64,000 nt of DNA, taken from assembly GCA_964016885.1 (NCBI GenBank), contig OZ024758.1, forward strand, positions 18,538,001 to 18,602,000. The letters are read 5' to 3'. Source of the DNA: Eledone cirrhosa. Lineage: Eukaryota. The notes beneath the pieces were generated by a model. That model was given only the letters and a program-made list of their open reading frames with translations. It did no database searches and was not told the DNA's origin. Shown here one piece after another: positions 6,480 to 61,076 of this stretch. The first letter of the stretch is position 1. Each line of letters opens with the position of its first letter. The position numbers were made by a program, and so were the translations under genes.

Positions 6480-6597
6480 GTTATTTTATTTTTATATATT
6501 GTCATTGCCTCCTCCTTATTGAGGAGGCCTTGTTTTGTAAACTCCCCCCATTGTACTTGTCCCACTTTTGATGCCCTGGTGGCAGATAAAAGAAACA
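6480..6597 (+). mobile_element. 5'-truncated 3'UTR of a Tx1-related LINE inserted in (TATC)n, with a 15-bp TSD
   Basis: tgtaaactcccccc...ttgtccc...tgccctggtggcagataaaagaaac resembles the 3' end of the full element (58975-59046); flanked by tatctatgtatctat at 6465-6479 and 6598-6612. Confidence 0.65.
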
Positions 6598-11629: not shown

Positions 11630-11829
11630 NNNNNNNNNNNNNNNNNNNNNNNNNNNNNNNNNNNNNNNNNNNNNNNNNNNNNNNNNNNNNNNNNNNNNNN
11701 NNNNNNNNNNNNNNNNNNNNNNNNNNNNNNNNNNNNNNNNNNNNNNNNNNNNNNNNNNNNNNNNNNNNNNNNNNNNNNNNNNNNNNNNNNNNNNNNNNNN
11801 NNNNNNNNNNNNNNNNNNNNNNNNNNNNN
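11630..11829. other. Assembly gap (200 N)
   Basis: Run of N. Confidence 1.
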
Positions 11830-12013: not shown

Positions 12014-12104
12014 TTAACTTTGCCTTTCATCCTTACAGGGTCGATTAAATATCGTACGAATAATGCAATGGAAGAATTGGTCGCCTTGTGCCAATACGAA
12101 ATAA
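12014..12104 (+). mobile_element. tRNA-SINE 3' half, diverged
   Basis: ttaactttgcctttcatccttacagggtcgat...gccttgtgccaatacgaaataatt matches the SINE family at 23160-23722 in the opposite orientation. Confidence 0.75.
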
Positions 12105-13766
12105 TTCAAATGATTTGAACAGAACAAATATAAAATGTGATTAGAAGTTTAATGAACAAGTAATATTGTTTTTAAAAAATGACTACACAGAGACATACAT
12201 TGTTTACCTACAGTAAACCAAATAAAAAGAGCTCATGTCACGGCCTATTTCAAGTCACCTGTGGTGACCATATACGCAGTAGTATGATCACCTCCGAATA
12301 AAACATATTCCTTTGAAAGATCACCTTTTGACAGTTAAACGTCATTTCTGATTGCACTTGTGTATGCAACATTATGGATATATAAAGATTATTTTTGAGA
12401 ATGTAACTTATTGCTGTTTTAAGGCAAGTACTTGACAACTCTCTGGGGACGGAACATTATATCTGCCACACAGAACACATGGTAGTTCAGTCAATGCATT
12501 TTCGGTGATGGTAGATAGGTTTGAACTGAGGGCGCAAAGATGCTGAATATGTGAACCACAAAATCACATATGACACTTTTAAATTGATCTTAAACGAACA
12601 TGAACAATTGCGGAAGCATTGAACTTAACTCTCTAAAATTATCGACTTCTCGCATATCAAATATATATTGATATATTGAACGATAAAGTCCTTCATGTCA
12701 GTGCATACGCGGTTTTCATCATTGGAGCATATTTGACCAAAATGTTTGAGGAATATGCCTGACCCAGACCAAAAAATGTACTGAAACTACAATCTCAATA
12801 TTTTCGGTGTTAAGGTAGATGAATCAAAATAATATGGAAATGTGATAAGATATTTAAGTATAGTATCAAATGTATCATGTTGTTTGCAGGAAACATATTA
12901 TTAAATAAAATATATATTTTGCATCCATTCAAAAGCTATTATCGAAGTAAATTCCATTCAATTAAGACCTGAAACCATATAATATCTTAACGGTTGAACA
13001 GTGTTCAAACAGGAAGTAAACGTCTCCATTCTTAAATATTTCAAACGTGTTGCTAGTAATTTCCCACATTCAGCTTAATAATGTGATGTCTGTTGTCACC
13101 AGTGATATTAAGGTAAATATATTATAATGCTCAAAGTTATAAATCAGTATTTATTGAATATCAATTTTCGGAAATCGTTTTATAGATAGAATATTTCCTT
13201 AATAAAAACAAACATTAACATTTATATTATTGGCGATTTCTGAAGTGCTATGATTTTAATCTCGAAATGATTAAACGTTGTGTTTATATTTAGAGACTAA
13301 AACTAAATTTAATAGAAAATAAACTATAAAAGAAATTAAATATAACAAAAACATAGAAACTATAGCAATAAAATAAGCACAAACAATTTGATTTAATTTC
13401 GTGATACGAATATTTAGATTTTTTTTTTCAATGTTTCTGAAATCACTTCGTAAATAGACATTTGTGATAAGGTTTATATAAATATTGTAGATGTATATAC
13501 ATTAATATATGAATAATAATATTAATAATAACAATAATAAATATCATAAATATTAAAAACTTCAATATTCACATTTAATTAATTAAATGTTTGCTTTAAT
13601 CAATAATTTATGAACTGGTACTGAAGTTGCTGATTTCACCAGTTTTTAAATCAATAATTACATGAGAAACGATCAAGAATGCACTTATCTTCCATTGAAT
13701 GATTTTAGTTCATGAGACGTAACACTCTTAAGACAAGTGAGACATATGGTAGAAAGGGAAGAATTG

Positions 13767-17203: not shown

Positions 17204-17204
17204 T

Positions 17205-18460
17205 AACACTGATGTTATCTACCTTGATTTCAGCAAGGCCTTTGACAGGGTTGATCATAACATTCTACTGAGAAAACTGTCCAATATTGGTGTCACTGGA
17301 AAGCTGCTGCAGTGGATCAAGAGCTTCCTGTCAAACAGAACCCAACATGTTGTAGTTGAAGGAGTCAAATCCAGCCCAGCCAAAATCAGTAGTAGGGTCC
17401 CACAAGGCACTGTGTTGGGCCCACTTCTCTTCATCATCTATATTAATGACATCACTGACATCATCAAACACAGCAACATTAAAATTTTCGCTGATGATTC
17501 CAAGCTCCAAAAGGTCATCAATGACGTGGATGACCGGATAAGCCTTCAGTCAGACCTACTGGCTGTTACCCAATGGACGGAAGAGAACAATATGTTACTG
17601 AACGAAGACAAATTCGAGCTGATCCACTTTGGAAAAGAGGATGCTCTGAAACTCCCGTACATCCTTCCCTCCGGGGAAACTCTCGTGGCATCTAACAACA
17701 TCAGAGACTTGGGAGTAACCGTGGACAGCAACATAAGCTGGGCCACGCATATAAGCAGCAAAGTTGACATGGCCCGCAGAATGTGTTCCTGGATACTCAG
17801 AACCTTCCAGTCGAGAGATTCCCACACCATTATCCTTCTCTGCTCTACATTTGCCCGACCACACCTTGAATACTGTTGTTCACTGTGGTCTCCCCACACG
17901 AAACATATTATCATGAAACTTGAAGCTCCTCAAAGGGCAATCACGAAAAAGATAGATGGTATGTCAGACCTTGACTACTGGGGTCGACTAGAAAAGCTGA
18001 AACTTTACTCACTCCAACGTCGCCGTGAGCGTTATATTATCTGCATGATGTGGAAAATGTTCCATCATCACTGACCAAATGATGTTGGCATCGCCTTCAA
18101 GATACACCCAAGGCTTGGGCCCCGTGCTATCCGTCCCATACAAAAATCTAAATTGCAACTCATAACAACAATACGGCACAATTATTTCACCTCAATTGGC
18201 CCTGCTCTCTTCAACATCACACCAGGACACGTCAAAACAGATACTGACCACACAAAATTCAAGAAGTCTTTGGACAAATTCTTCCAAGTAATCCCGGAAA
18301 AACCACCCACACCCGGATATGTCTCCGCAAACAGCAATTCTCTTCTCGAATGGGCCATGGTGCCCAAACCCTGAATTGAAAGACTTCGCACAGTGGTGCT
18401 ATTAATTTAGACATGGTCTGGGCCAATACTGGCCAAAACATTTCAACGTTATTCAAAGTT
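17205..18460 (+). pseudogene. 5'-truncated CR1-clade non-LTR retrotransposon (RT domain to 3'UTR)
   Basis: One frame from 17205: [16 protein letters not shown]...WIKSFLSNRTQ...VPQGTVLGPLLF...FADDSK...RPHLEYC...LYSLQRRRER; single premature TGA at 18072-18074, then ...GPALFN...KFKKSLDKF to stop at 18374; 3'UTR to 18460; both flanks (TA)n. Confidence 0.92.
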
Positions 18461-22497
<4,037 letters not shown>

Positions 22498-23159: not shown

Positions 23160-23722
23160 ATTGTTCCTACTTTTGGCACAAGGCCAGCAAATATCCCCGT
23201 CCTTTACTGGTACTTTATTTGTCTCGACCCTGTAAGGACGAAAGATCCTAAAAGGCTGTAACTCTATGCTGCAAAGCATGGTGTCCGACCCTCTACCGAT
23301 ACTGCCAATCCACCGCCCTAAATACACAAAAAAAAATGTTTCTACTGTTGGCACAAGGCCAGCAATCATCCCAGTGTATTACTGTTGCTTACCTTTATCG
23401 ACCCCGTAATGATGAAAGGTAAAGTTGACCTCGACAGGATTTGAACTCAGACCATAAAAGGCCGTTACTCTTTGCTGCAAAGCGTGTCGTCAAACCCTCT
23501 ACCGATACTGCCAATCCACCATCCTTAATACAGGGATAATTGTTTCTAATTTTGGCACAAGGAAAGCAATTACTCAGTGCATTACTGGTACTCTATTTTA
23601 TCGACCCCGGAAGGATGAAAGGCAACGTTAACCTCGGCGGGATTTGAACTCAGAATGGCAAGGGCCGTAACTCTATGCGTCAAAGCATGGCATCCGCCCC
23701 TCTACCGATACTGCCAATCCAC
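23160..23722 (-). mobile_element. Three head-to-tail tRNA-derived SINE copies (about 23160-23318, 23337-23524, 23540-23722)
   Basis: Minus strand: gggcggtggatTGGCAGTATCGG (A box)...GAGTTCAAATCC (B box)...gcctttcatccttacggggtcgataaaataaagtaccag...ggccttgtgccaaaagtagaaac; the first copy has an internal deletion. Confidence 0.9.
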
Positions 23723-32948: not shown

Positions 32949-33232
32949 GATATTGATTTATTTATGTGCGTGTGTGTATTTAAGAGTTTTATTTACGGTG
33001 AAATTTTAGTAGGAATAACAGGCTATTTGTCTCATACTATCATAGTGGCACGAAAGGAAACGTACACACACGTAACAAACTTTGCTTGGAATTCAGATGA
33101 CTCAAGGTGTGATCCTTCTCTAGACTCTCTCGGAAATAAACATGATGTCAAGTGGTAGAAAATATTTTGAGACCGTGTCATATCTTTTTTTGTTTTTGTA
33201 AACACGCTTTCAAAGTAATAATAAATAGCAGT

Positions 33233-33405
33233 GTTTACTTCAGGCACAAGGCCAGCAATCTGAATGGGATCTGTGTGAAAGTCTATTAAATCGACCCAAA
33301 TGCATTACTCGTACTTTATTTTATGAGGAATGCACAGGAATCGATGTAATTAATTTTCTCCACCCTTCAAACTTCTGATCTTGTGTCTAACGTAGAAACA
33401 GTTAT
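33233..33405. mobile_element. Diverged SINE fragments in opposite orientations (33233-33322 on -, 33350-33405 on +)
   Basis: ggcacaaggccagcaat...atcgaccc...tactttatttt, and cttgtgtctaacgtagaaacagttatt. Confidence 0.6.
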
Positions 33406-36887: not shown

Positions 36888-37004
36888 TTGTTTCTACTAT
36901 TGGCACACGGCCAACAATTATATCACTGCATTACTGGTACTTAATTTTATCGACCCCATAAGGATGAAAGGCAAAGTTAACCTAGGCTTGATTTGAACTC
37001 AGAC
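36888..37004 (-). mobile_element. 5'-truncated tRNA-SINE
   Basis: Matches the 23160 family from the B box to the 3' end. Confidence 0.85.
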
Positions 37005-39918: not shown

Positions 39919-40006
39919 TTGTTTCTACTTTATGCACAAGGCCAGCAATTACCCAGTGCATTACTGGTACTTTATTTTATCGACCCCGTAAGGATGAAAG
40001 GCAAAG
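39919..40006 (-). mobile_element. 5'-truncated tRNA-SINE
   Basis: 3' half of the 23160 family. Confidence 0.85.
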
Positions 40007-40014
40007 TATATATA

Positions 40015-41054: not shown

Positions 41055-41505
41055 TTGTTTCTACTATTGGCACAAGTCCAGCAATTACCCAGTACATTAC
41101 TAGTACTTTATTTTATCGATCCCGTAAGGCTGGAAGGTAAAGTTAACCTCGGCGGGATTTGAACTGAGAAGTGCAAGGACCGTAACTCTATGCTTCAAAG
41201 CATGGCGTAACTCTATGTGTCAAAGCATGGCGTCCGACCCTAATAATAATAATAATAATAATTGGTTCTACTTTTGGCACAAGGCCAGCAATTATCCGAG
41301 AAGGCGCAAGGCCAGCAATTTTGGAGGAAGGGAAAGTCGATTAAATCAACTCCAGTACATTACTGGTAATATATTTTATCGACCCCGTAAGAATGAAAGG
41401 CAAAGTTAACCTCGGCGGGATTTGAAATCCGATTATAAAGGGCCGTAACTCGATGCTACAAAGCATGGCATCCGACCCTCTACCAATACTGCCAATCCAC
41501 CGCCC
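41055..41505 (-). mobile_element. Two tandem tRNA-SINE copies (41055-41240, 41262-41505) within a (TAA)n array
   Basis: A and B boxes plus central domain; (TAA)n before, between and after the copies; the first has a 25-bp internal duplication. Confidence 0.9.
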
Positions 41506-44694: not shown

Positions 44695-44864
44695 TTGTTT
44701 CTACTTTTGGCAGAATGCTAGCAATTACCCAGTACATTACTGGTACTTTATTTTATCGACGACGTAAGGATGAAAGGCAAAGTTAACCTCGGCGGGAATT
44801 GAACTCAGAATGGCAAGGGCCGTAATTCCATGCGCCAAAGCGTAGCGTCCGACCCTCTACCGAT
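44695..44864 (-). mobile_element. tRNA-SINE copy
   Basis: Matches the 23160 family. Confidence 0.88.
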
Positions 44865-45759
44865 ATAATGTTTGGAAATAATATTTATTATAAAATCATA
44901 GTATCTTTACTAAAGTATTAAATGCATCTAAAATTGTTTTGCATTAGATTAGAAGTATCATATCTCCATATTAACTGTCTGTGTACCTTTGCCAATTCTG
45001 ATTCTTGTAGTTATTTTAACATAAATATGAACATACGAAGATCGCTCTATTTGGAATTTCGTCCAAATATATGAACCTTAAAATGCGTTGATATGTCTCT
45101 TAATTTCCAAGCAATGTCGTAAAAAGTGGCAAATATGTCTACCGTCTATAATAGTAAATCAACAGAAAATAAGAAGACATAAATTTCATGGCTCCGGGAG
45201 ACATTATTTGTCGTTTACTTCTCTTCATTGAAATCGATATACATATTTGCACAGATTATGTCAATTTATTTCCCAAGTTCTTTACTTTTTTGGGTTTCTA
45301 TGAGAGGCATTCAAGTGAATATTTAAGCTAACGTTATAAAATACATTTTCATGTTTATATATTTCAAACCAATTTTCAATACAGATTTTATATTGTGTAT
45401 TTGTATTTATATTATCTATTTGTTTTCATATATAAAAAAATGATTTGTTAAGTTATTCAAGAACCATCGATTATTGATTATAGATGTTCTATATATAGTA
45501 TGAAGATGTAACATTACATTACCTTTAAATGTCTCTATTTAAAATAACATTTTTTCCGTGAATGAACTCTGAAATTGTCCTCATATCGTCTGCTTATAAA
45601 CCGCACGCAACATATTTTTCTTTCAATACATAATGTATAATAAAAACGTTAAATTGATCATTATCAAATTTATTGATGTTTTCCATAGTCAACAATGACA
45701 GTTGAATATTAGCAACAACATCATCGTATCATACCCGGTTTGCTTATACATTTTTAAAT

Positions 45760-50839: not shown

Positions 50840-51230
50840 CTAGGGTGGGTAACATTCCCGAGATCCGTGGACGAGTTCTCTCCAGCTGTCTCTGTCCATC
50901 ATTATCGATGCCATGTCCTGCGTCTCCAACAGACCAGTGTCAGTCCTTAGGGCTTCAACATATGTTAACTCTGGTCTTCCTCTTCCAGTGTCTCCATGTA
51001 GGGGCTCCCACAGGAGCACGATGTGCAATGTCAACTATGGATGTCGGTGAGAATGTTCAGCTAACCTCAGACCTCTCTGTGTTACTTTTAAGCTGATTTT
51101 TGGGAGGCTCCCATACAGCTCCAAGTTGTTCATCCTCAGGGTATACTGATTAATGTTCAGAGCCATTCTCAGCATTCTCGTGTGGCACCCATTCACCATC
51201 TGAGTGAGTTTCTTGGTCAGTGTCCAAGTT
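50840..51230 (-). pseudogene. RTE-clade LINE 3' terminal part
   Basis: Minus frame TWTLTKKLTQMVNGCHTRMLRMALNI...LYGSLPKIS...RLAEHSHRHP*...LLWEPLHGDTGRGRPELTYVEALRTDTG...DRDSWR, typical of RTE C-termini. Confidence 0.85.
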
Positions 51231-53272: not shown

Positions 53273-53481
53273 GACGAAAGTGGATGTACGTTTTTTGAAG
53301 CTCCGTGAGTAAGCAATTTTTGAGGATTAATTGTAGAGAATTGTTTATTTTTTGTACCGCTGAAGCATTATAAGACATTAATTTGTATCCTGTGAAGGAA
53401 TAACTCATAATATTTGGGCCTTTTGGCCCAAATATTTGAACTTTATTTTGAAAAAAATAATAATTTTTTTCTCAAAAAAAC

Positions 53482-55344
53482 ATGGCGGAGCCACGCCCCC
53501 TAGAGGCGGGTCTGCTGTCGTGCAACGGCGACTTGAGCGTTGAGAGGAGAGGTGAGGCGAGGAGCGCCACCAGCACGAATGTGAGCAGCGACAGTGCCAG
53601 CACCAACGGGCCGAGCGGCGCGGAAGGTGGTAACAACGACAACACCAACACCAACAAGCCGAACAGCGCAGAAGGTGGTAATAGCGAGAGCACCAACAAG
53701 GCCAACAGCACAGAAGGTAACCACGACACAGGGGAGAACAACAACAGCAATAGCAGCAGCAACACCAACAAGAACAACAACAGTGACAACACCAACAAGA
53801 ACACTTTCGCTGCTGTGGCAGCGGCTAAAAGGAGACCATGCTACAGCATCGACTTAACCAACAGAGAGGAAAAGTTGGCCCAGGCCTGGAAAATCATAAA
53901 CCAAGAGCAGACCTGGGCAAACTTAACTGTCCCGGCAGAAGCCATTGAGGCAGTGGAAAAAAGAACGGTGCATTTCAGATGCATCTCAGTAGAGACAAAG
54001 AGGGCAGCGATAATCGCCCAAGCTGACATAGAAGCCGCACTGAAATACATCAGAGAGGACACAGACTTCATAGAGAGGGGCAGGCAATACGGCACCGTTT
54101 CGGTGCTGTTCAAGTCTGAAGCCCTCGCTGTGAAGCATTCAATGACCCCTTGCAAAACCAGCAAGGTCATAATGTACCCCTCCCACATGGGAAAACGAAT
54201 AGCACGTGTGCGCATTCCCAGGATTCCACCAGGACTTGATATGTGGTGGCTCCTGGGTTGCGTAATCGTGGAAGGAACGGATACAGTCCCGGTAGAGGCA
54301 ACGAGAACTGCCAGGGACGACTGGTCCGGGGTTGATCTGGAGATACTGCTCCAAATCAGACCCGAAAACGTAAAAACAATCCCGGACCACATCCGCCTCC
54401 AAAACGGGAGGGTGTTGCATATAATGACTGAGGGCAAAAGGCCGCATTGTTTCCTTTGTGGGGAAACGACACACTTGCGAGCCTTCTGCCCTCAACTGCC
54501 GAAAAGCGCAAGGGGTCGAAAGATTCCACTGCTGGCGACGCCGGGACAAGGACCACCAGCAACACCGTCAACAATGGAACCACCAAAATTGCACACCCAG
54601 GGGGGAAACGAGGAAAGCTCTCCCATTCCCCCTCCCCCCCAAAATACACACACGAACAAGAACATAAACACTCACTCAGACACAAACACGCTCACAGCCA
54701 CAGACCCCTCATCCTCCAGCAGTGAAGATGAGGGAAAACCAAAGTCCCCCAAAATACAAAAAACAAAACACAAAAAAAAAAGAAATCCACAAAGCACAAA
54801 CACCCCCACAAAAGAAAATACACACACCACCCACACAAACATTTTCCCCACAGCATCACCAACACAACCACCAAAATCCCCCAAACGCAAACAAGCTAAA
54901 CAGACACAAGAACAAATAGACACACAAACATCAGAAACTACAGACACCCCACCCACAACAAACGCAGACACAATAGAAACAACACTAACAAAGCTATCAC
55001 CACCACAATCACACGAACAAATAAAACCCGAGCAACAAAACATTAAAAACTTCGTGCTTGCCAGAAGGGCCAACAAGGAATTGATGGCCCATGTAGCACG
55101 AAGCACAAACATCGAAAAAGACGGGGAAACATTTGAAGCGAGCACATTTCGCGTACCAGATAATTTGCTTCTGATGCGAATGTCGCTCGCTTCATACAAA
55201 GAAATTCGAAAGAGCTTTCCTCGGGATGTGGGAACCCCGAACGTAAAACCCACGTCAAGACTATTAAAGGGGTTCCCAAAAGAAACCCCACAAACCATGG
55301 AGGTCGAACCACCCGACCTTCACAAGACCCCGGAAGGTAAGTAA
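53482..55344 (+). CDS. ORF1, gag-like nucleic-acid-binding protein (620 aa)
   Basis: CCHC knuckle CFLCGETTHLRAFC (CX2CX4HX4C), N/S-rich N-terminus, P/T/K-rich linker; start context aaacATGG. Confidence 0.9.
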   Translation: MAEPRPLEAGLLSCNGDLSVERRGEARSATSTNVSSDSASTNGPSGAEGGNNDNTNTNKPNSAEGGNSESTNKANSTEGNHDTGENNNSNSSSNTNKNNNSDNTNKNTFAAVAAAKRRPCYSIDLTNREEKLAQAWKIINQEQTWANLTVPAEAIEAVEKRTVHFRCISVETKRAAIIAQADIEAALKYIREDTDFIERGRQYGTVSVLFKSEALAVKHSMTPCKTSKVIMYPSHMGKRIARVRIPRIPPGLDMWWLLGCVIVEGTDTVPVEATRTARDDWSGVDLEILLQIRPENVKTIPDHIRLQNGRVLHIMTEGKRPHCFLCGETTHLRAFCPQLPKSARGRKIPLLATPGQGPPATPSTMEPPKLHTQGGNEESSPIPPPPQNTHTNKNINTHSDTNTLTATDPSSSSSEDEGKPKSPKIQKTKHKKKRNPQSTNTPTKENTHTTHTNIFPTASPTQPPKSPKRKQAKQTQEQIDTQTSETTDTPPTTNADTIETTLTKLSPPQSHEQIKPEQQNIKNFVLARRANKELMAHVARSTNIEKDGETFEASTFRVPDNLLLMRMSLASYKEIRKSFPRDVGTPNVKPTSRLLKGFPKETPQTMEVEPPDLHKTPEGK

Positions 55345-55373
55345 ACCTTTCCTCTCCCATTCATCCTGCCAGC

Positions 55374-58300
55374 ATGGCCATAAGAGTAGGAAGTTTAAAT
55401 GTTCGTGGCCTGGGGTCGCCCTGGAAGCAAGGTCACTTGCTCAACGACCTCAGGTCACTAGGAATGGATGTAATTGCCATCAGCGAGACCAGAATTTCCG
55501 ACACACGCGCACTGGCGCCGATTTTCGACGATTATCAGATCTTTGCATCTGTTAGTCGGCCGGGAATGGGAGGTGGAGTGGCTGTGCTGTTTAGGAAATG
55601 TCTGGATCTCGAGGTAAGGTCAATCTTCCGGGATCCTGACGGAAAGTTGGTGGTCCTGGACGTGAGCAATAGCGAAGGTGGTGCCTTTAGACTGGTGGCC
55701 GTCTACGCCCCTACTGGGGCCGGTCGGCCGGACTTCTTTAGGCGCCTGGAAAACTTTCTGCTTACGTCTCGCCCTTTACTGTTAATAGGGGATTGGAATG
55801 GCATCTTAGAAGCACGCTGGGATTGTGTGGGAGTATCTGATAGGAGCGGGGGGTGCAAAAGCCTCAAGTACCTGATCAGCCAGTTTCAACTGTCTGACAG
55901 GTACCGACTAGATTTCCCTAATGCGCCAGTATGGACCTGGACCAATCGCATAGGGTCATCTAGATCGTACATAGATAGGATTTTCATTAGGAAAAGAGAT
56001 AGAAATAGTGTAGGATGTCCACATTTTAAAACGGTTGCCTATTCAGATCACAAGCTTGTGATCTGTATGGTCGACCTAGATAAGACACGTAGGTTAGGAC
56101 CTAGCTACTGGAAGCTAAACATGTCGTTTCCGGCACGTAAAGCTTACAGGGACCGGGTCAACAACTTAGTTAAGCAAAAGTTGACAGGGGGGGTTGTCAA
56201 CAACAGGTGGTGGGGGGCACTCAAAAGAGAGATTAGAGCAACCTCGATAGGATTTAGCAAAGAAGTAGCAATAGAGAAAAATAGAAAGGAGGAGGGGCTG
56301 ATAGCTAAGTTAGACGAGGCTATTTGTAGTGGCATTGCAACAGACGTGCTAGCGGCGAGAATGGCACTAGACCATTTCTTCAATGCGAAACACGAAGGTT
56401 GCATTGTCAGAGCTAAGGCGCGTGCTCTGAGGAACGAGGGAACCAAAGCTGCCCGATGGGCTCGCTTTGCAGAGACGCAGCGTGGAAATAAAACCACAAT
56501 TCGGTCTTTGACGGATCGAGATGGACACGAACTGAGCGATTCCAAGCGGATGTGTGAGGCCTTTCGCCAGCACTTTGCTCGATTGTTCGGGAGGATGGGT
56601 GAGTCGGAGATGGCGGCGGACTTCAGTCCCTACCTCGACGGCTTGCCACGCCTCTCGACGGCCGACGCTGAGCGCTGCGAAGAGCCGATAACATCAGCCG
56701 AAATTCAGGACGCCCTTGTCGGCTGCTCGAGTCGCAAGTCACCCGGTTTGGATGGTCTGCCCTACGAGCTTTACGTAAATATGCCAGACTTGTTCTCCGA
56801 TCTCCTCGAAGCGCTCTACTGCAACTGGCAGCAGAACGGGAGCATTCCCAGTTCTGTGAGCCGTGGCGTAGTGACGCTGATAAGGAAAGACGAGAACAAG
56901 AGGGACACACTAGATAATTTCAGGCCCATAACCCTGCTCAACACAGAGTTTAAGATTTTGGCCAAGGTGTTAGCGAAAAGGTTGGCGCTTGTCGTCAAAG
57001 ATTTGGTTGGGGAGGCGCAAACTTGCGCAATCCCGACCAGGTCCATACACGACAACCTCCACCTCATGCGATACATCATAGAGAGGGTTGGGTGCAAACC
57101 TGGCTTCGGTGGGGCTCTGATCAATTTAGATCAATCGAAAGCATTCGATAGGGTCGACCATCGGTACTTGGAGGCTGTCCTCGAGGCGGCTGGCTTCGGC
57201 CCCGTCTTCAGAAGCTGGATCGCTGCAATGTACAGCGGCATCCGCTCGGTGGTCAAAGTTAATGGCCACCTCTCGGAACCGTTTCAGATCTCTCGATCGG
57301 TCCGTCAAGGGTGCCCTCTCTCCTCACTTCTGTACGTATTGACTCTTGAGCCTCTACTGCGGAAGCTGGAGTTGTTGCAGGGCATCCCGCTCGAACCGGG
57401 ACGTAGAAAGGCTGCGTCCGCTTATGCGGACGACATCACCGTGATGGTGTCGGACACCTCGGAAATCGAGGTGATCCGCACCCATTTGGAGGAATATGAA
57501 AGGTTGACGGGAGCAAAACTTAACCCGGAAAAGTCGGTGGGCTTGCAGCTCGGCACCTGGAGAGGCAAGTCCATGCCGTCCAACAGCGTCGTTGGGCGCT
57601 GGACAGACGGACCGGTAAAGTTGCTCGGGGTTTGGTTCGGACCAGACCTCCAGGTGGATAAGAATTGGGACGAGGTGACGAGCAGGATAGCCAACCTCAC
57701 CCAGAAATGGGCTGAGAGAAAGCTATCACTGAAAGGGCGGGCGGAGGTGGCGAACGCGTACATCGCGTCCGTCATCTACTACCGCCTGACCGTCGTGCCT
57801 TGCCCCCGTCCACGCCTCGCCAATTTGGAACGGCTCCTTTTCAAATTTTTGTGGAGGGGACAGGTCCCGTTGGTGAGGCGGTCCATCTGCTGCCAGCACC
57901 CTCTTCGTGGAGGGCTGGGCATGCCGTGGCTAATGATGCGCAGACATGCGCTGAGGCTGCGACATCTCCAGATATTTTGCCTAAACGGTGAACAGGTGTG
58001 GTCGCCGTTTGTTAGACGGGCCTTTCCGCAGCTCATCTCTTTGACTGAGCTGCAGTCCTGGGTCAAGAAGAGACCGAGACTGGGCGACTGGCATCTGGAA
58101 TGTTGCCAGGCGCTCACTGCACTCTGCAAGGTGGGCAATGCGGTCAGTGGAACTTCCACTCAAGATTTCTATAGAGGATTAGTGGAGGGCAAGTGCGATG
58201 ACGTACTAGGAGAGGCTCTGGGCGTCAACGAAGTAGAACTGACCAGTATGTTCCGGAGGACTTTCGAGCCGGGGACGATGGATAACTTCCAGAAATCCCT

Positions 58301-58793
58301 CGCTTGGCAGTGCTACCGGGGGGCGCTGCCGGTTCGGGATAAACTCTACAGGCACGGAAGTGCTGTCAGACGAACCTGCCCGAGATGCGCGCAGAGCGAC
58401 GAAACCGTTCTGCACGCACTCGTCCAGTGTCCGTGCATTGCTGACTTGTGGGGTTATGTCGAACAGCTATTGTCGCGTGTAGAACGGATCCGGCTATCGT
58501 CCGAGTCCATAGTGAAGATTGACCCGCCGCCTTCTTTTGGTCAGGAAGGGCAGGCAATTTTCCTCTGCCTGGTGGCAGTAGCGAAAGAGGTTGCATGGTG
58601 GACCAGGTTGAAAGGACTGAAGACAGACACTTTTCTCTTCGGCCAATCCCTCATCAACTTCTTCAAGTTTCACTTGGAAAGGAAGGTGAGGGTGGAGAGA
58701 GAAGTGCTGCCCCCCAGTACATTTACTGAAAGGTGGGTGAATGTGGCGAGAATGGCCCGCGTGAGTGGGCCTACTCTGATCATGCGCCTGTAG
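55374..58793 (+). CDS. ORF2: AP-like endonuclease, reverse transcriptase and C-terminal zinc finger (1139 aa)
   Basis: APE motifs SLNVRGL, ISET, VYAP, GDWN, IDRIF, SDH; YWKLN; RT motifs KSPGLDGLP, FRPITLLN, LDQSKAFDRV, VRQGCPLS, YADD; C-terminal CPRC...ETVLHALVQC. Confidence 0.97.
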   Translation: MAIRVGSLNVRGLGSPWKQGHLLNDLRSLGMDVIAISETRISDTRALAPIFDDYQIFASVSRPGMGGGVAVLFRKCLDLEVRSIFRDPDGKLVVLDVSNSEGGAFRLVAVYAPTGAGRPDFFRRLENFLLTSRPLLLIGDWNGILEARWDCVGVSDRSGGCKSLKYLISQFQLSDRYRLDFPNAPVWTWTNRIGSSRSYIDRIFIRKRDRNSVGCPHFKTVAYSDHKLVICMVDLDKTRRLGPSYWKLNMSFPARKAYRDRVNNLVKQKLTGGVVNNRWWGALKREIRATSIGFSKEVAIEKNRKEEGLIAKLDEAICSGIATDVLAARMALDHFFNAKHEGCIVRAKARALRNEGTKAARWARFAETQRGNKTTIRSLTDRDGHELSDSKRMCEAFRQHFARLFGRMGESEMAADFSPYLDGLPRLSTADAERCEEPITSAEIQDALVGCSSRKSPGLDGLPYELYVNMPDLFSDLLEALYCNWQQNGSIPSSVSRGVVTLIRKDENKRDTLDNFRPITLLNTEFKILAKVLAKRLALVVKDLVGEAQTCAIPTRSIHDNLHLMRYIIERVGCKPGFGGALINLDQSKAFDRVDHRYLEAVLEAAGFGPVFRSWIAAMYSGIRSVVKVNGHLSEPFQISRSVRQGCPLSSLLYVLTLEPLLRKLELLQGIPLEPGRRKAASAYADDITVMVSDTSEIEVIRTHLEEYERLTGAKLNPEKSVGLQLGTWRGKSMPSNSVVGRWTDGPVKLLGVWFGPDLQVDKNWDEVTSRIANLTQKWAERKLSLKGRAEVANAYIASVIYYRLTVVPCPRPRLANLERLLFKFLWRGQVPLVRRSICCQHPLRGGLGMPWLMMRRHALRLRHLQIFCLNGEQVWSPFVRRAFPQLISLTELQSWVKKRPRLGDWHLECCQALTALCKVGNAVSGTSTQDFYRGLVEGKCDDVLGEALGVNEVELTSMFRRTFEPGTMDNFQKSLAWQCYRGALPVRDKLYRHGSAVRRTCPRCAQSDETVLHALVQCPCIADLWGYVEQLLSRVERIRLSSESIVKIDPPPSFGQEGQAIFLCLVAVAKEVAWWTRLKGLKTDTFLFGQSLINFFKFHLERKVRVEREVLPPSTFTERWVNVARMARVSGPTLIMRL

Positions 58794-59100
58794 GCTGGTG
58801 AATTCGAGAAGGAGAGGGGTGCCCTTCCCGGGTGCCCTAGGAGCGTCGGGTGGCTCAGGACTGGTGGGGTGCTTGAGTCAACCCTGGGTGGTGATCCCTC
58901 TTATTGGGGAACTTTCATTGTTGTATTTTTATTGTTATTTTGTTTTTTTGTTATTTATACTTACTCGATCTCTATGTAAACCCCCACTGTCCCTGTCTAT
59001 TGTGTTGTCCCCTATATGTCGGCCCTTGTGGCCAATAAATGAAATCATTATTATTATTATTATTATTATTATTGTTAGTATTGTTATTATTATTGTTGTT

Positions 59101-60817
59101 ATTCCTTGAATCTCAGTCATTGATGTTGGTTAACTGGAAAGTCCGTTGGATTGAATATCAAGCCACTACCTGCAGCCTCAGATATTCAGGACGTATCGGA
59201 GGGTTTTTGCTGTTCCAAGCAAGCATGCCTTTTGAAGCGTTCCAAAAAGCGTGAAGGGGCCGATTTTCTTTAACCATCCCTGGAAACTTTTGGAGATAGT
59301 CCCCAGTGCGCCTATGACAATCGGGATCACTTTGACTTCATAGCAGTTCCAAATCCTTTTCACCTCCCACTTTAGGTCCTGGTATCGGTTAATTTTCTCC
59401 CTCTCCTTCTCTTGCACTCTCGTGTCGAACGGGCAGGCCACATCCACAATCAGACACGATCTTTTTTCTTTGTCCACAACCACCAGGTCAGGTCTATTGT
59501 GTTTCAGTTTTTTGTCCGTCTGTATCCTAAAATCCCACAGCAACTTCACCTGATCGTTCTCCATCACCGCCTCTGGCCTATGCTCATACCATTTCTCAGA
59601 ATGTGGTAAATTGTTTACTTTGCACAGGTGCCAGTGGATCACCCTGCCCATCACATCGTGTCTCCAGCCCTTGTAGTGGGTCTGGGCTAGGTGTTTACAC
59701 TCGGACACAATGTGAGCCACAGTCTCCTCTTTCTCTCCACAGATCCTGCACAGTGGGCTAGCCTCCTCCTTGTAAATATGGTGCTTCAACCACTTCGTTT
59801 TGAGGGCCTGCTCCTGCGCAGCCATTAGCATTCCTTCTGTAGCCTTTTTGAGGTCTGCTCTTCTCAACCAGTTCCATGTCTGTGGATCTCTAAATTCAGT
59901 TTTCTCAAAGAAGGTACTATGAAGGGATTTTCCCTTAAGGCTGCTCTTCCTCCTTGATGTTATTTCCTCCTTGGACATCCCCTGGCCTACTGTCCCCTCC
60001 TTCAGTACAGTTCTGAGCATTGGCTCCTTACTATAGGTCACGTATTTGTATAGGTTGTTTTTCTCCATCTGAACACAGTACTCTATGCTGATAAGACATC
60101 TTCCACCCTCAGATCTCCTTAGGTAGAGTCTATCGACATCACTCCTCTTGTGGAACATGTTGTAGATAGTCAATAGCTTCCTAGTCTTCCTATCCATTTC
60201 TTTTTGTTCAGCAACATTCCATCTCAGAATTCCCGCACTGTACCTAATAATAGACACAGCTCGGGAATTTACTGCGCTTATGGCATTTCTGCTGTTCAGA
60301 TGTGACTTCAATACGCTCCTTATTCTCCGAATGTATTCAGTTCTTAACAATTCCTTCATTTTTTTGTTCTTTATGCCATCAGCCTCCAGAACGCCCAAAT
60401 ACTTGTATCCTTCCTCAGAGTCAATTTCCTTTATCATCTCACCTGTTGGTATCTGGATCCCGTTACTTCTGCTCAACCTACCCCTCCTCATCACAATGAC
60501 TCCACATTTACCAATACCAAACTGCATACATATATCACTGCTGAAAATACGGACAGTGTCAACAAGCACATCCAACTCCTTCTCACTTTTCCCGAAGAGC
60601 TTAAGATCGTCCATGAAGAGGAGGTGATTGATGGTAAGCTCTCCCCTTCCCAACTTGTATCCTGCTCTCACTTTTCGCAGCATAATGGTCAAGGGCATCA
60701 GGGCAAGGACAAACCACAGAGGGGACAGGCTATCTCCCTGGAAGATACCTCTCTTGATCTTCACGCTTCCCAAGGATACTCCAGTTGATGTCAACTCTGT
60801 CTCCCAGGACCTCATAC
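59101..60817 (-). mobile_element. 5'-truncated R4/Dong-clade non-LTR retrotransposon (RT, CCHC and restriction-like endonuclease)
   Basis: Frame is open to the stop at 59178; 3'UTR 59101-59177; (TAA)n-type repeats on both sides. Confidence 0.9.
59178..60817 (-). CDS. Partial ORF: RT C-terminal half, zinc finger and PD-(D/E)XK RLE
   Basis: GIFQGDSLSPLWF, HLLFMDDLKLF, YKYLGV, CRICGEKEETVAHIVSEC, RHD, RPDLVVVD...IVDVACP...KEREKINRYQDL; the listed start at 60869 lies in flanking repeat and is not genuine. Confidence 0.88.
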
Positions 60818-60850: not shown

Positions 60851-61076
60851 TTCCTTGAATCTCAGTCATTGATGTTGGTTAACTGGAAAGTCCGTTGGAT
60901 TGAATATCAAGCCACTACCTGCAGCCTCAGATATTCAGGACGTATCGGAGGGTTCTTGCTGTTCCAAGCAAGCATGCCTTTTGAAGCGTTCCAAAAAGCG
61001 TGAAGGGGCCGATTTTCTTTAACCATCCCTGGAAACTTTTGGAGATAGTCCCCAGTGCGCCTATGACAATCGGGAT
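60851..61076 (-). mobile_element. Second, 226-bp 3'-terminal copy of the same R4/Dong element
   Basis: Essentially identical to 59102-59327 (one substitution seen by eye). Confidence 0.92.

Follow-up and report, generated by a model that had tools for sequence, protein, structure and literature searches.

The window analysed in this study is a stretch of 64,000 nucleotides from Eledone cirrhosa (assembly GCA_964016885.1, contig OZ024758.1, positions 18,538,001 to 18,602,000 of the forward strand). It harbours a full-length Tx1-like LINE of 5,774 bp (53273..59046, plus strand) that has (ATT)n on either side and belongs to a family, hereafter family A, of an ATT-targeting branch. The first open reading frame, ORF1 (53482..55344, plus strand), codes for 620 amino acids with a single CX2CX4HX4C zinc knuckle and has no Pfam match. 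ORF2 (55374..58793, plus strand) is intact and encodes a protein of 1,139 amino acids with an AP endonuclease, a reverse transcriptase and a zf-RVT domain, whose best solved relative is human L1 ORF2p (E 9e-57; R2 proteins 5e-22). Two ORFs, together with an ORF2 that carries AP endonuclease, reverse transcriptase and C-terminal zinc motif and is closest to L1, are features of the L1/Tx1 group. The search for ORF2 relatives returned no named Tx1 reference, nearly all matches being unnamed, and the putative label Tx1 is based on the ORF1 zinc knuckle, on target preference and on general knowledge of the group. In addition, a 48-bp tandem repeat and an (AAC)n stretch occupy the start of ORF1 (53597-53698), and many copies of family A show a length change there.

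The 3′-UTR of this LINE ends, as stated in the preliminary description, with GGCC-CTTGT-GGCC (59021..59033, plus strand), a terminal hairpin composed of two GGCC arms (59021-59024 and 59030-59033) and a CTTGT loop (59025-59029), for which a pairing probability of 0.98 is predicted in a 260-nt context. An A-rich spacer of 13 nt containing AATAAA and GAAA (59034..59046, plus strand) forms the terminus of the element, with no poly(A), and lies between the hairpin and an (ATT)n array (59047..59103, plus strand) that starts with nine pure ATT units at 59047 and then becomes degenerate. In the genome searched, which comprises 3.0 Gb, the best 40 matches to the last 351 nt (58700-59050) are all 100% identical, these top-scoring copies representing the young end of the family only. 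ATT comes next at the 3′ end in 30 of 30 top copies that were fetched, which is the kind of target preference regarded as a Tx1 trait. Extension of 20 top copies showed each of them to be full length, the 5′ end of one being masked, and three of the 20 lie directly behind another copy. Likewise, the solo 5′ flanks of full-length copies end with at least 5 ATT units in 16 of 16 readable cases. An unbiased pattern search for the 26-nt tail of the window LINE found 1,423 exact copies genome-wide. Among the first 30 of these, 6 share 96% identity or more with the window LINE and are followed by 3-10 ATT units, 17 show 68-91% identity and a median of 2 ATT units, and 7 are too short for classing. 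Family A also occurs as tail-only insertions of about 27-36 nt, that is, hairpin and spacer (loci L336, L337, L340 and L342), of which one is flanked by a duplication of 15-18 bp and another immediately follows a SINE tail.

Further Tx1-like families were collected with a window fragment at 6480..6597, with a tail found in a flank and with two tail patterns as queries. The two patterns gave 6,090 and 11,279 genome matches, as opposed to 0 for the reversed patterns, and ORF2 sequence was present upstream of the tail in 26/30 and 27/30 of the loci fetched. In a tree of 13 C-terminal ORF2 halves and four outgroups, the seven rows with ATT targets (families A, C and G) are set apart from the six with TATC targets (families B, E and F), with support of 89/91 for the ATT side and 96/94 for the TATC side. 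These families form a clade characterized by a terminus that lacks poly(A) and combines a conserved loop with a covarying stem and a spacer of 12-13 nt, and the clade consists of an ATT-targeting and a TATC-targeting branch. The fragment at 6480..6597 (plus strand) is a 5′-truncated 3′-UTR in a (TATC)n tract. Its end, TGCC-CTGGT-GGCA, was confirmed at 6572-6584 (arms 6572-6575 and 6581-6584, plus strand). The possibility that it is a piece of the window LINE family was rejected, as its longer copies stand behind an ORF2 about 70% identical to that of the window LINE and the ORF2 tree places it in family B of the TATC branch.

The window also contains copies of an abundant, non-coding SINE of about 185-240 bp, which terminates with TGGC-CTTGT-GCC(A/T), a 12-nt spacer and ATTAT. 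A long variant with a partly duplicated tail (41263..41505, minus strand; terminal 29 nt at 41263-41291) lies inside an (ATT)n array, and downstream of it is a copy without the start of the head (41056..41241, minus strand), whose tail (41056-41084) is followed by 9 ATT units. At 23162..23722 (minus strand, one tail at 23337-23365) three copies stand head to tail with no (ATT)n array, and the short spacers between them resemble one common target duplication. The remaining features on the minus strand are a copy with tail outside arrays (44696..44865), two 5′-truncated copies with tail (39920..40007 and 36889..37003) and an old remnant of the long variant with tail (33230..33324); another old remnant, with a diverged tail, is on the plus strand (12014..12105). 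The SINE tail strings previously described were found where they had been placed, give or take a few bases, but the copy at 23337 ends in a T run and not in (ATT)n. Similarly, the placement of the copies at 41055-41505 in an (ATT)n array is true but unrepresentative, since only 2 of the 10 SINE tails of the window sit in such an array. A run of 200 N is present at 11630-11829.

Sixty 10-kb stretches of the genome, taken at arbitrary round positions, were used as a random sample. The 83 SINE tails found in these 600 kb extrapolate to about 410,000 copies, an estimated 2-3% of the genome. What distinguishes short from long variants is the sequence of the spacer and a C-rich stretch, about 30 nt in length, that precedes the tail; the two are identical in their loop, in GAAA and in the length of the spacer. 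The aligned copies show motifs resembling A and B boxes, as judged against the general box consensus; ARAGORN found no tRNA, and a search of Rfam up to E = 10 gave no match to one either.

The question of which LINE carries the tail of this SINE was addressed by comparing ten Tx1 tails with LINE ends from three other groups (CR1, two families; R4-like, three; RTE, three), an incomplete library limited to these groups. In an end-anchored alignment of the last 30 nt, 48 of 50 Tx1-by-SINE pairs reached p<0.05 against dinucleotide shuffles, as compared with 3 of 40 pairs of SINEs and other LINE ends (R4c not being part of this test). The likeness between LINE and SINE tails thus exceeds chance. 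Furthermore, a profile built from 67 SINE tails alone peaks within 1 nt of the terminus in 10/10 Tx1 tails and in 0/9 CR1, R4 and RTE ends, so that the SINE tail is closer to the Tx1 tails than to the sampled ends of these three clades. The highest score is that of family F of the TATC branch (16.8 bits), family G of the ATT branch reaching 13.1 bits and the window LINE, the lowest of the ten, 2.9 bits. The spacer of the window LINE is one base longer, and once a gap is allowed its tail aligns well with one long SINE variant. Consequently, the link that had been drawn between Tx1 and the SINE stands for a tail of the Tx1 clade, but not as a one-to-one pairing with the window LINE, which belongs to a young subfamily and, without gaps, matches the SINE less well than any other of the ten.

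The ten Tx1 tails are relatives rather than independent tests. With no more than about 29 nt in common, it is conceivable that short A-rich ends under the same target came to resemble each other by chance or convergence, the true partner being extinct or unsampled. The limits of the library in L2, Nimb/I, Hero and R2 ends would leave room for such a partner, and so would the lack of a LINE family with the SINE's own stem plus AATAAA in two genome pattern searches (4 and 24 matches). In these searches SINEs accounted for 4/4 and 17/24 of the exact-stem matches, and the other 7 are mutually unrelated, one of them having a Tx1 fragment about 350 nt upstream. Nevertheless, convergence appears very improbable, because the best Tx1 profile scores have a background frequency of 4e-6 to 1e-5 per position, the match falls on the terminus itself and a compensatory pair is unlikely to arise by chance.

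A partner from the CR1 clade was also considered, in view of one family with a GGCC hairpin near its end (CR1a) and of another that ends in (ATT)n (CR1b); only these two CR1 families were looked at closely. With its terminal decamer repeat trimmed, CR1a aligns to 3 of 5 SINE tails at p<0.05, and these are the three significant pairs mentioned above. In most of 15 copies CR1b has three to five terminal ATT units, and no further family with an ATT end was seen. Moreover, CR1 and L2 appear as the usual partners of tRNA-SINEs in the part of the survey consulted (PMC3747384). The profile scores of the two families (0.7 and -1.3 bits) are however near background and off the terminus, the actual terminus of CR1a is a decamer repeat inside (AT)n, and CR1b shows duplications of at least 12 bp in 0/15 copies, the 5′ junctions, on visual inspection, mostly lacking ATTAT. 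A CR1 partner is accordingly held to be quite unlikely, if slightly less so than convergence. Least probable of all is an R4/Dong-like element with a restriction-like endonuclease. A stretch in the R4c 3′-UTR scores 12.9 bits, which puts it level with the majority of Tx1 tails, and it appears repeatedly among the top non-SINE matches of the random sample, and two other R4 families occupy the same microsatellite; yet this stretch is located in the loop of another, larger hairpin, 50 nt short of the terminus, and is followed by GACTC instead of ATT. In addition, its stem equivalent consists of wobble or broken pairs only, and R4c ends with (ATAC)n, the other R4 families ending with (AAT)n in the strand sense opposite to the SINE.

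The conservation of the hairpin was examined in an alignment of 15 rows, namely the ten Tx1 tails, the family B fragment of the window and four SINE tails. Across these rows the loop is CTTGT or CTGGT and the spacer is A-rich and 12-13 nt long. The stems are GGCC/GGCC, TGCC/GGCA, AACC/GGTT, AATC/GGTT and CGCC/GGCG, with TGGC/GCCA in the SINEs. The inner three pairs are kept in 15/15 rows and the outer pair in 9. Three of the four stem pairs vary on both sides, with a covariation score matched by 0/500 shuffles and far lower values in slid registers, and RNAalifold recovers the inner three pairs unprompted; given that the rows are relatives of one another and themselves served to define the structure, these figures are to be read as support and not as a probability. 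The hairpin thus covaries across the sampled Tx1 families and between LINE and SINE, the compensatory difference between the latter two being a single pair, C-G in the LINEs and G-C in the SINEs. Taken at the level of sequence, the 3′ end of the SINE qualifies as a homologue of the LINE 3′ terminus, with a conserved stem-loop and compensatory changes.

Folding predictions give a less uniform picture of the hairpin. The minimum-energy fold is the hairpin in 5/5 Tx1 tails versus 1/4 SINE tails, and folding z-scores provide no support by themselves (-0.55 for the window LINE, -0.93 to 0.38 for the SINE tails). In full-length SINE RNA the median pairing probability of the hairpin is 0.02 for 25 short copies and 0.13 for 3 long ones, exceeding 0.5 in 4/28, owing to competition from a stem further upstream; when only the final 31 nt are folded, the short variant reaches 0.99. 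Among 67 SINE tails the inner pairs are intact in 63, 65 and 65 and the outer pair in 37, with T-T in 29, and no compensatory stem change was found among these copies. These predictions for the SINE RNA weigh against a stringent recognition of the hairpin. They lend themselves to a different explanation, according to which the tail is of Tx1 origin, the hairpin is a relic in the SINE and the ORF2 protein of either branch takes the RNA by its AUU 3′ end. Specifically, this end would pair with the nicked target and would itself select ATTAT, a relaxed and repeat-guided form of recognition. The poor standing of the hairpin in the full-length RNA and the loss of the outer pair in 29/67 copies are what such a mechanism would leave. 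Against it, the sole stem position that differs between SINE and LINE is altered on both sides with the pair kept, and the short and long SINE variants agree in their loop, in GAAA and in the length of the spacer.

LINE and SINE had been described as a candidate microsatellite-targeted pair, and for the SINE this did not hold, as it uses a motif of 5-6 nt mostly outside arrays. In particular, ATTAT comes directly after the tail in 61 of the 83 tails of the random sample, and the pure ATT units that follow number 0-3 in 79 and 4 in 4, never more. The corresponding figure for LINE families C and G is at least 4 ATT units in 25/30 copies, the search pattern itself having required two. With a short ATTAT motif and four units in just 4/83 tails, the SINE was rejected as a microsatellite-targeted element. 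A test that is independent of the 3′ flank agrees with the motif: solo SINE heads have ATTAT 12-26 nt upstream in 14/28 cases versus 3.1% of random sites. Moreover, the exact short SINE tail followed by TATCT occurs once genome-wide, as compared with about 135,000 exact tails (extrapolated from 27 in 600 kb), TATCTA being 60% as common as ATTATT in the random sample. Flank counts, solo heads and the rarity of TATCT therefore indicate that the SINE uses an ATT motif, and neither arrays nor a TATC target. Accordingly, the suggestion that the SINE inherits the target preference of the LINE is valid for the ATT-type cut motif, but not for a preference for long arrays.

The target duplications of the SINE were read in a set of 69 tails with a near-exact end, 61 of them with a 5′ boundary, in which some rows are tandem copies and share one duplication. 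Duplications of at least 12 bp are present in 33/61, versus 2.8% in a swapped-flank control, with a mode of 18. They begin at ATTAT and mostly run into unique sequence, and the preceding base is C or T in 25/31. Such long duplications fit an enzyme of the L1/Tx1 type.

The insertion marks of the LINEs themselves agree with those of the SINE in the cut point, and less well in duplication length. At 4 distinct sites a full-length LINE of the ATT branch begins immediately after a SINE tail, which points to a cut point common to both, and one truncated copy of family G also starts behind a SINE tail, with a duplication of 8-10 bp. Among truncated ATT-branch copies, duplications of at least 12 bp (13, 16 and 18 bp) were seen in 3/17 informative cases, a count that leaves out locus L086 with its TATC flank, and in 7% of the control; truncated TATC-branch copies show duplications of 12 and 20 bp in 2/13, with 0% in the control. 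Full-length ATT-branch LINEs have no unique duplication of 18 bp and their unique flank is not duplicated. ATT units nonetheless abut their 5′ end even when only 1-2 units are present in the 3′ flank (L206-L225, L344-L362). The length of LINE duplications is mostly unreadable, because the flanks are repeats and many of the automatically assigned 5′ junctions are internal deletions. From the junction sequences we infer that full-length LINE RNA may carry AUU repeats at its 5′ end and join by annealing, which would mask a long duplication. In the same two groups of loci, different families often stack head to tail.

As far as age is concerned, 81 full-length copies of the short SINE variant show a median nearest-neighbour identity of 95%, with none at or above 99%. 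The LINE values are 95-96% for families G, E, F and B (G 95%) and 98% for C, and the 100% of family A reflects its top matches only. Within family A, the young subfamily seems to be of more recent origin than the sampled SINE copies, and families C and G and the older A copies overlap the SINE ages. The likely partner of the SINE is the ATT-targeting branch, and not specifically the young copy in the window.

On the basis of the same tail motif and the same ATTAT sites, it is therefore likely that the enzyme of the ATT branch copies the SINE through the predicted hairpin and not through poly(A). In full, the last 29 bases of the SINE match the Tx1-like terminal motif, and we consider it probable, by roughly two chances in three, that the SINE is copied in trans by an ATT-branch ORF2 protein predicted to recognise the tail hairpin. 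Pol III would transcribe the SINE from its A- and B-box-like motifs; the tail would be bound by ORF2p, which would read mainly the loop and leave the stem sequence free to vary. The endonuclease would then nick the bottom strand opposite (C/T)^ATTAT, the AUU at the 3′ end of the RNA would pair with the primer and reverse transcription would begin, and the duplication would result from cleavage of the second strand at a distance of up to about 18 nt downstream. Every insertion would leave a new ATTAT junction behind the tail, which would explain both the head-to-tail stacks of SINEs and the LINEs directly behind SINE tails.

Recognition by the AUU end with a relic hairpin would, for its part, account for two further observations: the SINE tail is closest to a family of the TATC branch, yet TATC sites are almost never used, the single genome-wide case being that given above, and the SINE lacks the array preference of the LINEs. 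However, the endonucleases of the TATC branch would need to cut ATTAT, where no copies of their own were seen, and this explanation is on the whole judged unlikely, even if clearly less remote than a CR1 or R4 partner or convergence.

Copying by the ATT branch has a broader implication. The sister branches would share the RNA signal and cut different targets, and the SINE would follow only one of them, so that RNA recognition and target choice would be separable modules. We regard the chances as evenly divided that an animal L1/Tx1 lineage has kept or regained a structure-based RNA recognition, with no poly(A) and a five-base loop on a minimal stem, that this drove a SINE expansion of about 400,000 copies, which would rank among the largest in invertebrates, and that the two modules are separable. 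If true, this would name the engine of a SINE estimated at 2-3% of the genome and would account for its head-to-tail stacks. The octopus SINEs OK, OR1 and OR2 were reportedly described as tRNA-derived by Ohshima and Okada in 1994, and an abundant octopus SINE called 'Twin' is said to have been described by Albertin in 2015. The present SINE, which resembles them in its abundance, may be one of these four.

In the portions of the literature consulted, OR1 and OR2 are cited as CORE-SINEs (PMC4758252, PMC4824008), the partners named for mollusc SINEs are CR1, L2 and Nimb (PMC4824008, PMC11481361, PMC4758252), and Ceph-SINEs are said to carry RTE-derived parts (PMC5786205). The word Tx1 is absent from PMC11481361, on mollusc SINEs. 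The principle of a SINE with a borrowed LINE tail is well known, and what is probable here is a Tx1 partner that acts via a minimal shared tail. The closest parallels in the accessible text are UnaSINE with UnaL2 and the zebrafish ZfL2-1 and ZfL2-2 elements, with a common 3′ tail, a short stem-loop with conserved loop and exchangeable stem, and a terminal simple repeat in place of poly(A) (PMC4176376, PMC3747384). In particular, loop-specific and stem-tolerant recognition is reported as demonstrated by assay for zebrafish L2 elements (PMC4176376). Those partners belong to the L2 or CR1 clade and were assay-tested, whereas the present case, known from sequence, concerns an L1/Tx1-like and target-selective partner with a much smaller hairpin of 3-4 bp (PMC4176376, PMC3747384).

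Within the L1 clade, ZmSINE2/3 with LINE1-1_ZM in maize and sorghum, and SINEX-3_CR with L1-1_CR in Chlamydomonas, likewise show an L1-clade 3′ hairpin with compensatory changes in a tRNA SINE. They differ in that the algal pair ends with poly(A) and the maize SINEs with (T)n, and target preference is not mentioned in the sections seen (PMC3747384). As far as the excerpted table of the same review goes, L1-clade tails are limited to maize/sorghum and Chlamydomonas, with no animal L1 or Tx1 SINE/LINE pair (PMC3747384). For crocodilian SINEU and Tx1-Mar, a Tx1 mover was proposed from target and age, and tandem copies sandwich one duplication, as in the stacks described here; SINEU differs by its snRNA heads, poly(A) tails and Mariner target, and a LINE with the 3′ end of SINEU-1 is reported not to have been found (PMC4494074). 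Kibi, Koshi and the crocodilian microsatellite Tx1 families resemble the present ones in their insertion into microsatellites and in the shift of target between relatives. Their targets are (TC)n, (TTC)n, (TTCC)n and (TTTC)n, as against (ATT)n and (TATC)n here, and in the same passages no SINE partner is described (PMC4494074). Our literature search found no Tx1-tailed SINE, and Repbase or Dfam entries may already record the pairing. These comparisons raise the question of whether the L1-clade ancestor read a structured tail or poly(A) only, the structured cases in the portion of the review consulted being from plants and an alga (PMC3747384). If correct, an animal Tx1 clade that lacks poly(A) and has a covarying hairpin in common with a SINE would contribute an animal case and would make the question testable, as intact, near-identical ORF2 copies exist.

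A number of other repeats are found in the window and at the other loci. Two 5′-truncated R4/Dong-like pieces (59104-60817 and 60853-61074, minus strand), 99.6% identical over the last 224 nt, stand head to tail in the microsatellite of the Tx1 LINE, facing the LINE and ending with (AAT)n. This tail-to-tail arrangement of Tx1 and R4, that is, two unrelated clades in one array on opposite strands, recurs at loci L023, L093, L095 and L098. In an R4-like family (L136:9424-9482, minus strand; L120, L154) a long inverted repeat lies 50 nt before the 3′ end, and its 20-nt loop resembles the SINE tail. A 5′-truncated CR1-like element (about 17204-18461, plus strand) sits inside (AT)n and ends with a decamer repeat after a GGCC hairpin of its own, and an AT-rich microsatellite comes next in 20/20 copies of this element. 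An RTE-like 3′ remnant (about 50855-51202, minus strand) ends with (AT)n. The mixture of active Tx1, R4/Dong, CR1, RTE and SINE elements resembles that in the part seen of a table for Octopus vulgaris (PMC13282606). A recurrent short element with an A-rich tail is present in opposite sense near several LINE ends (L006, L016, L029, L126 and L154). Finally, a fragment at 61548-61760 (minus strand) reads like, and is presumably, the GIY-YIG end of a Penelope-like element.
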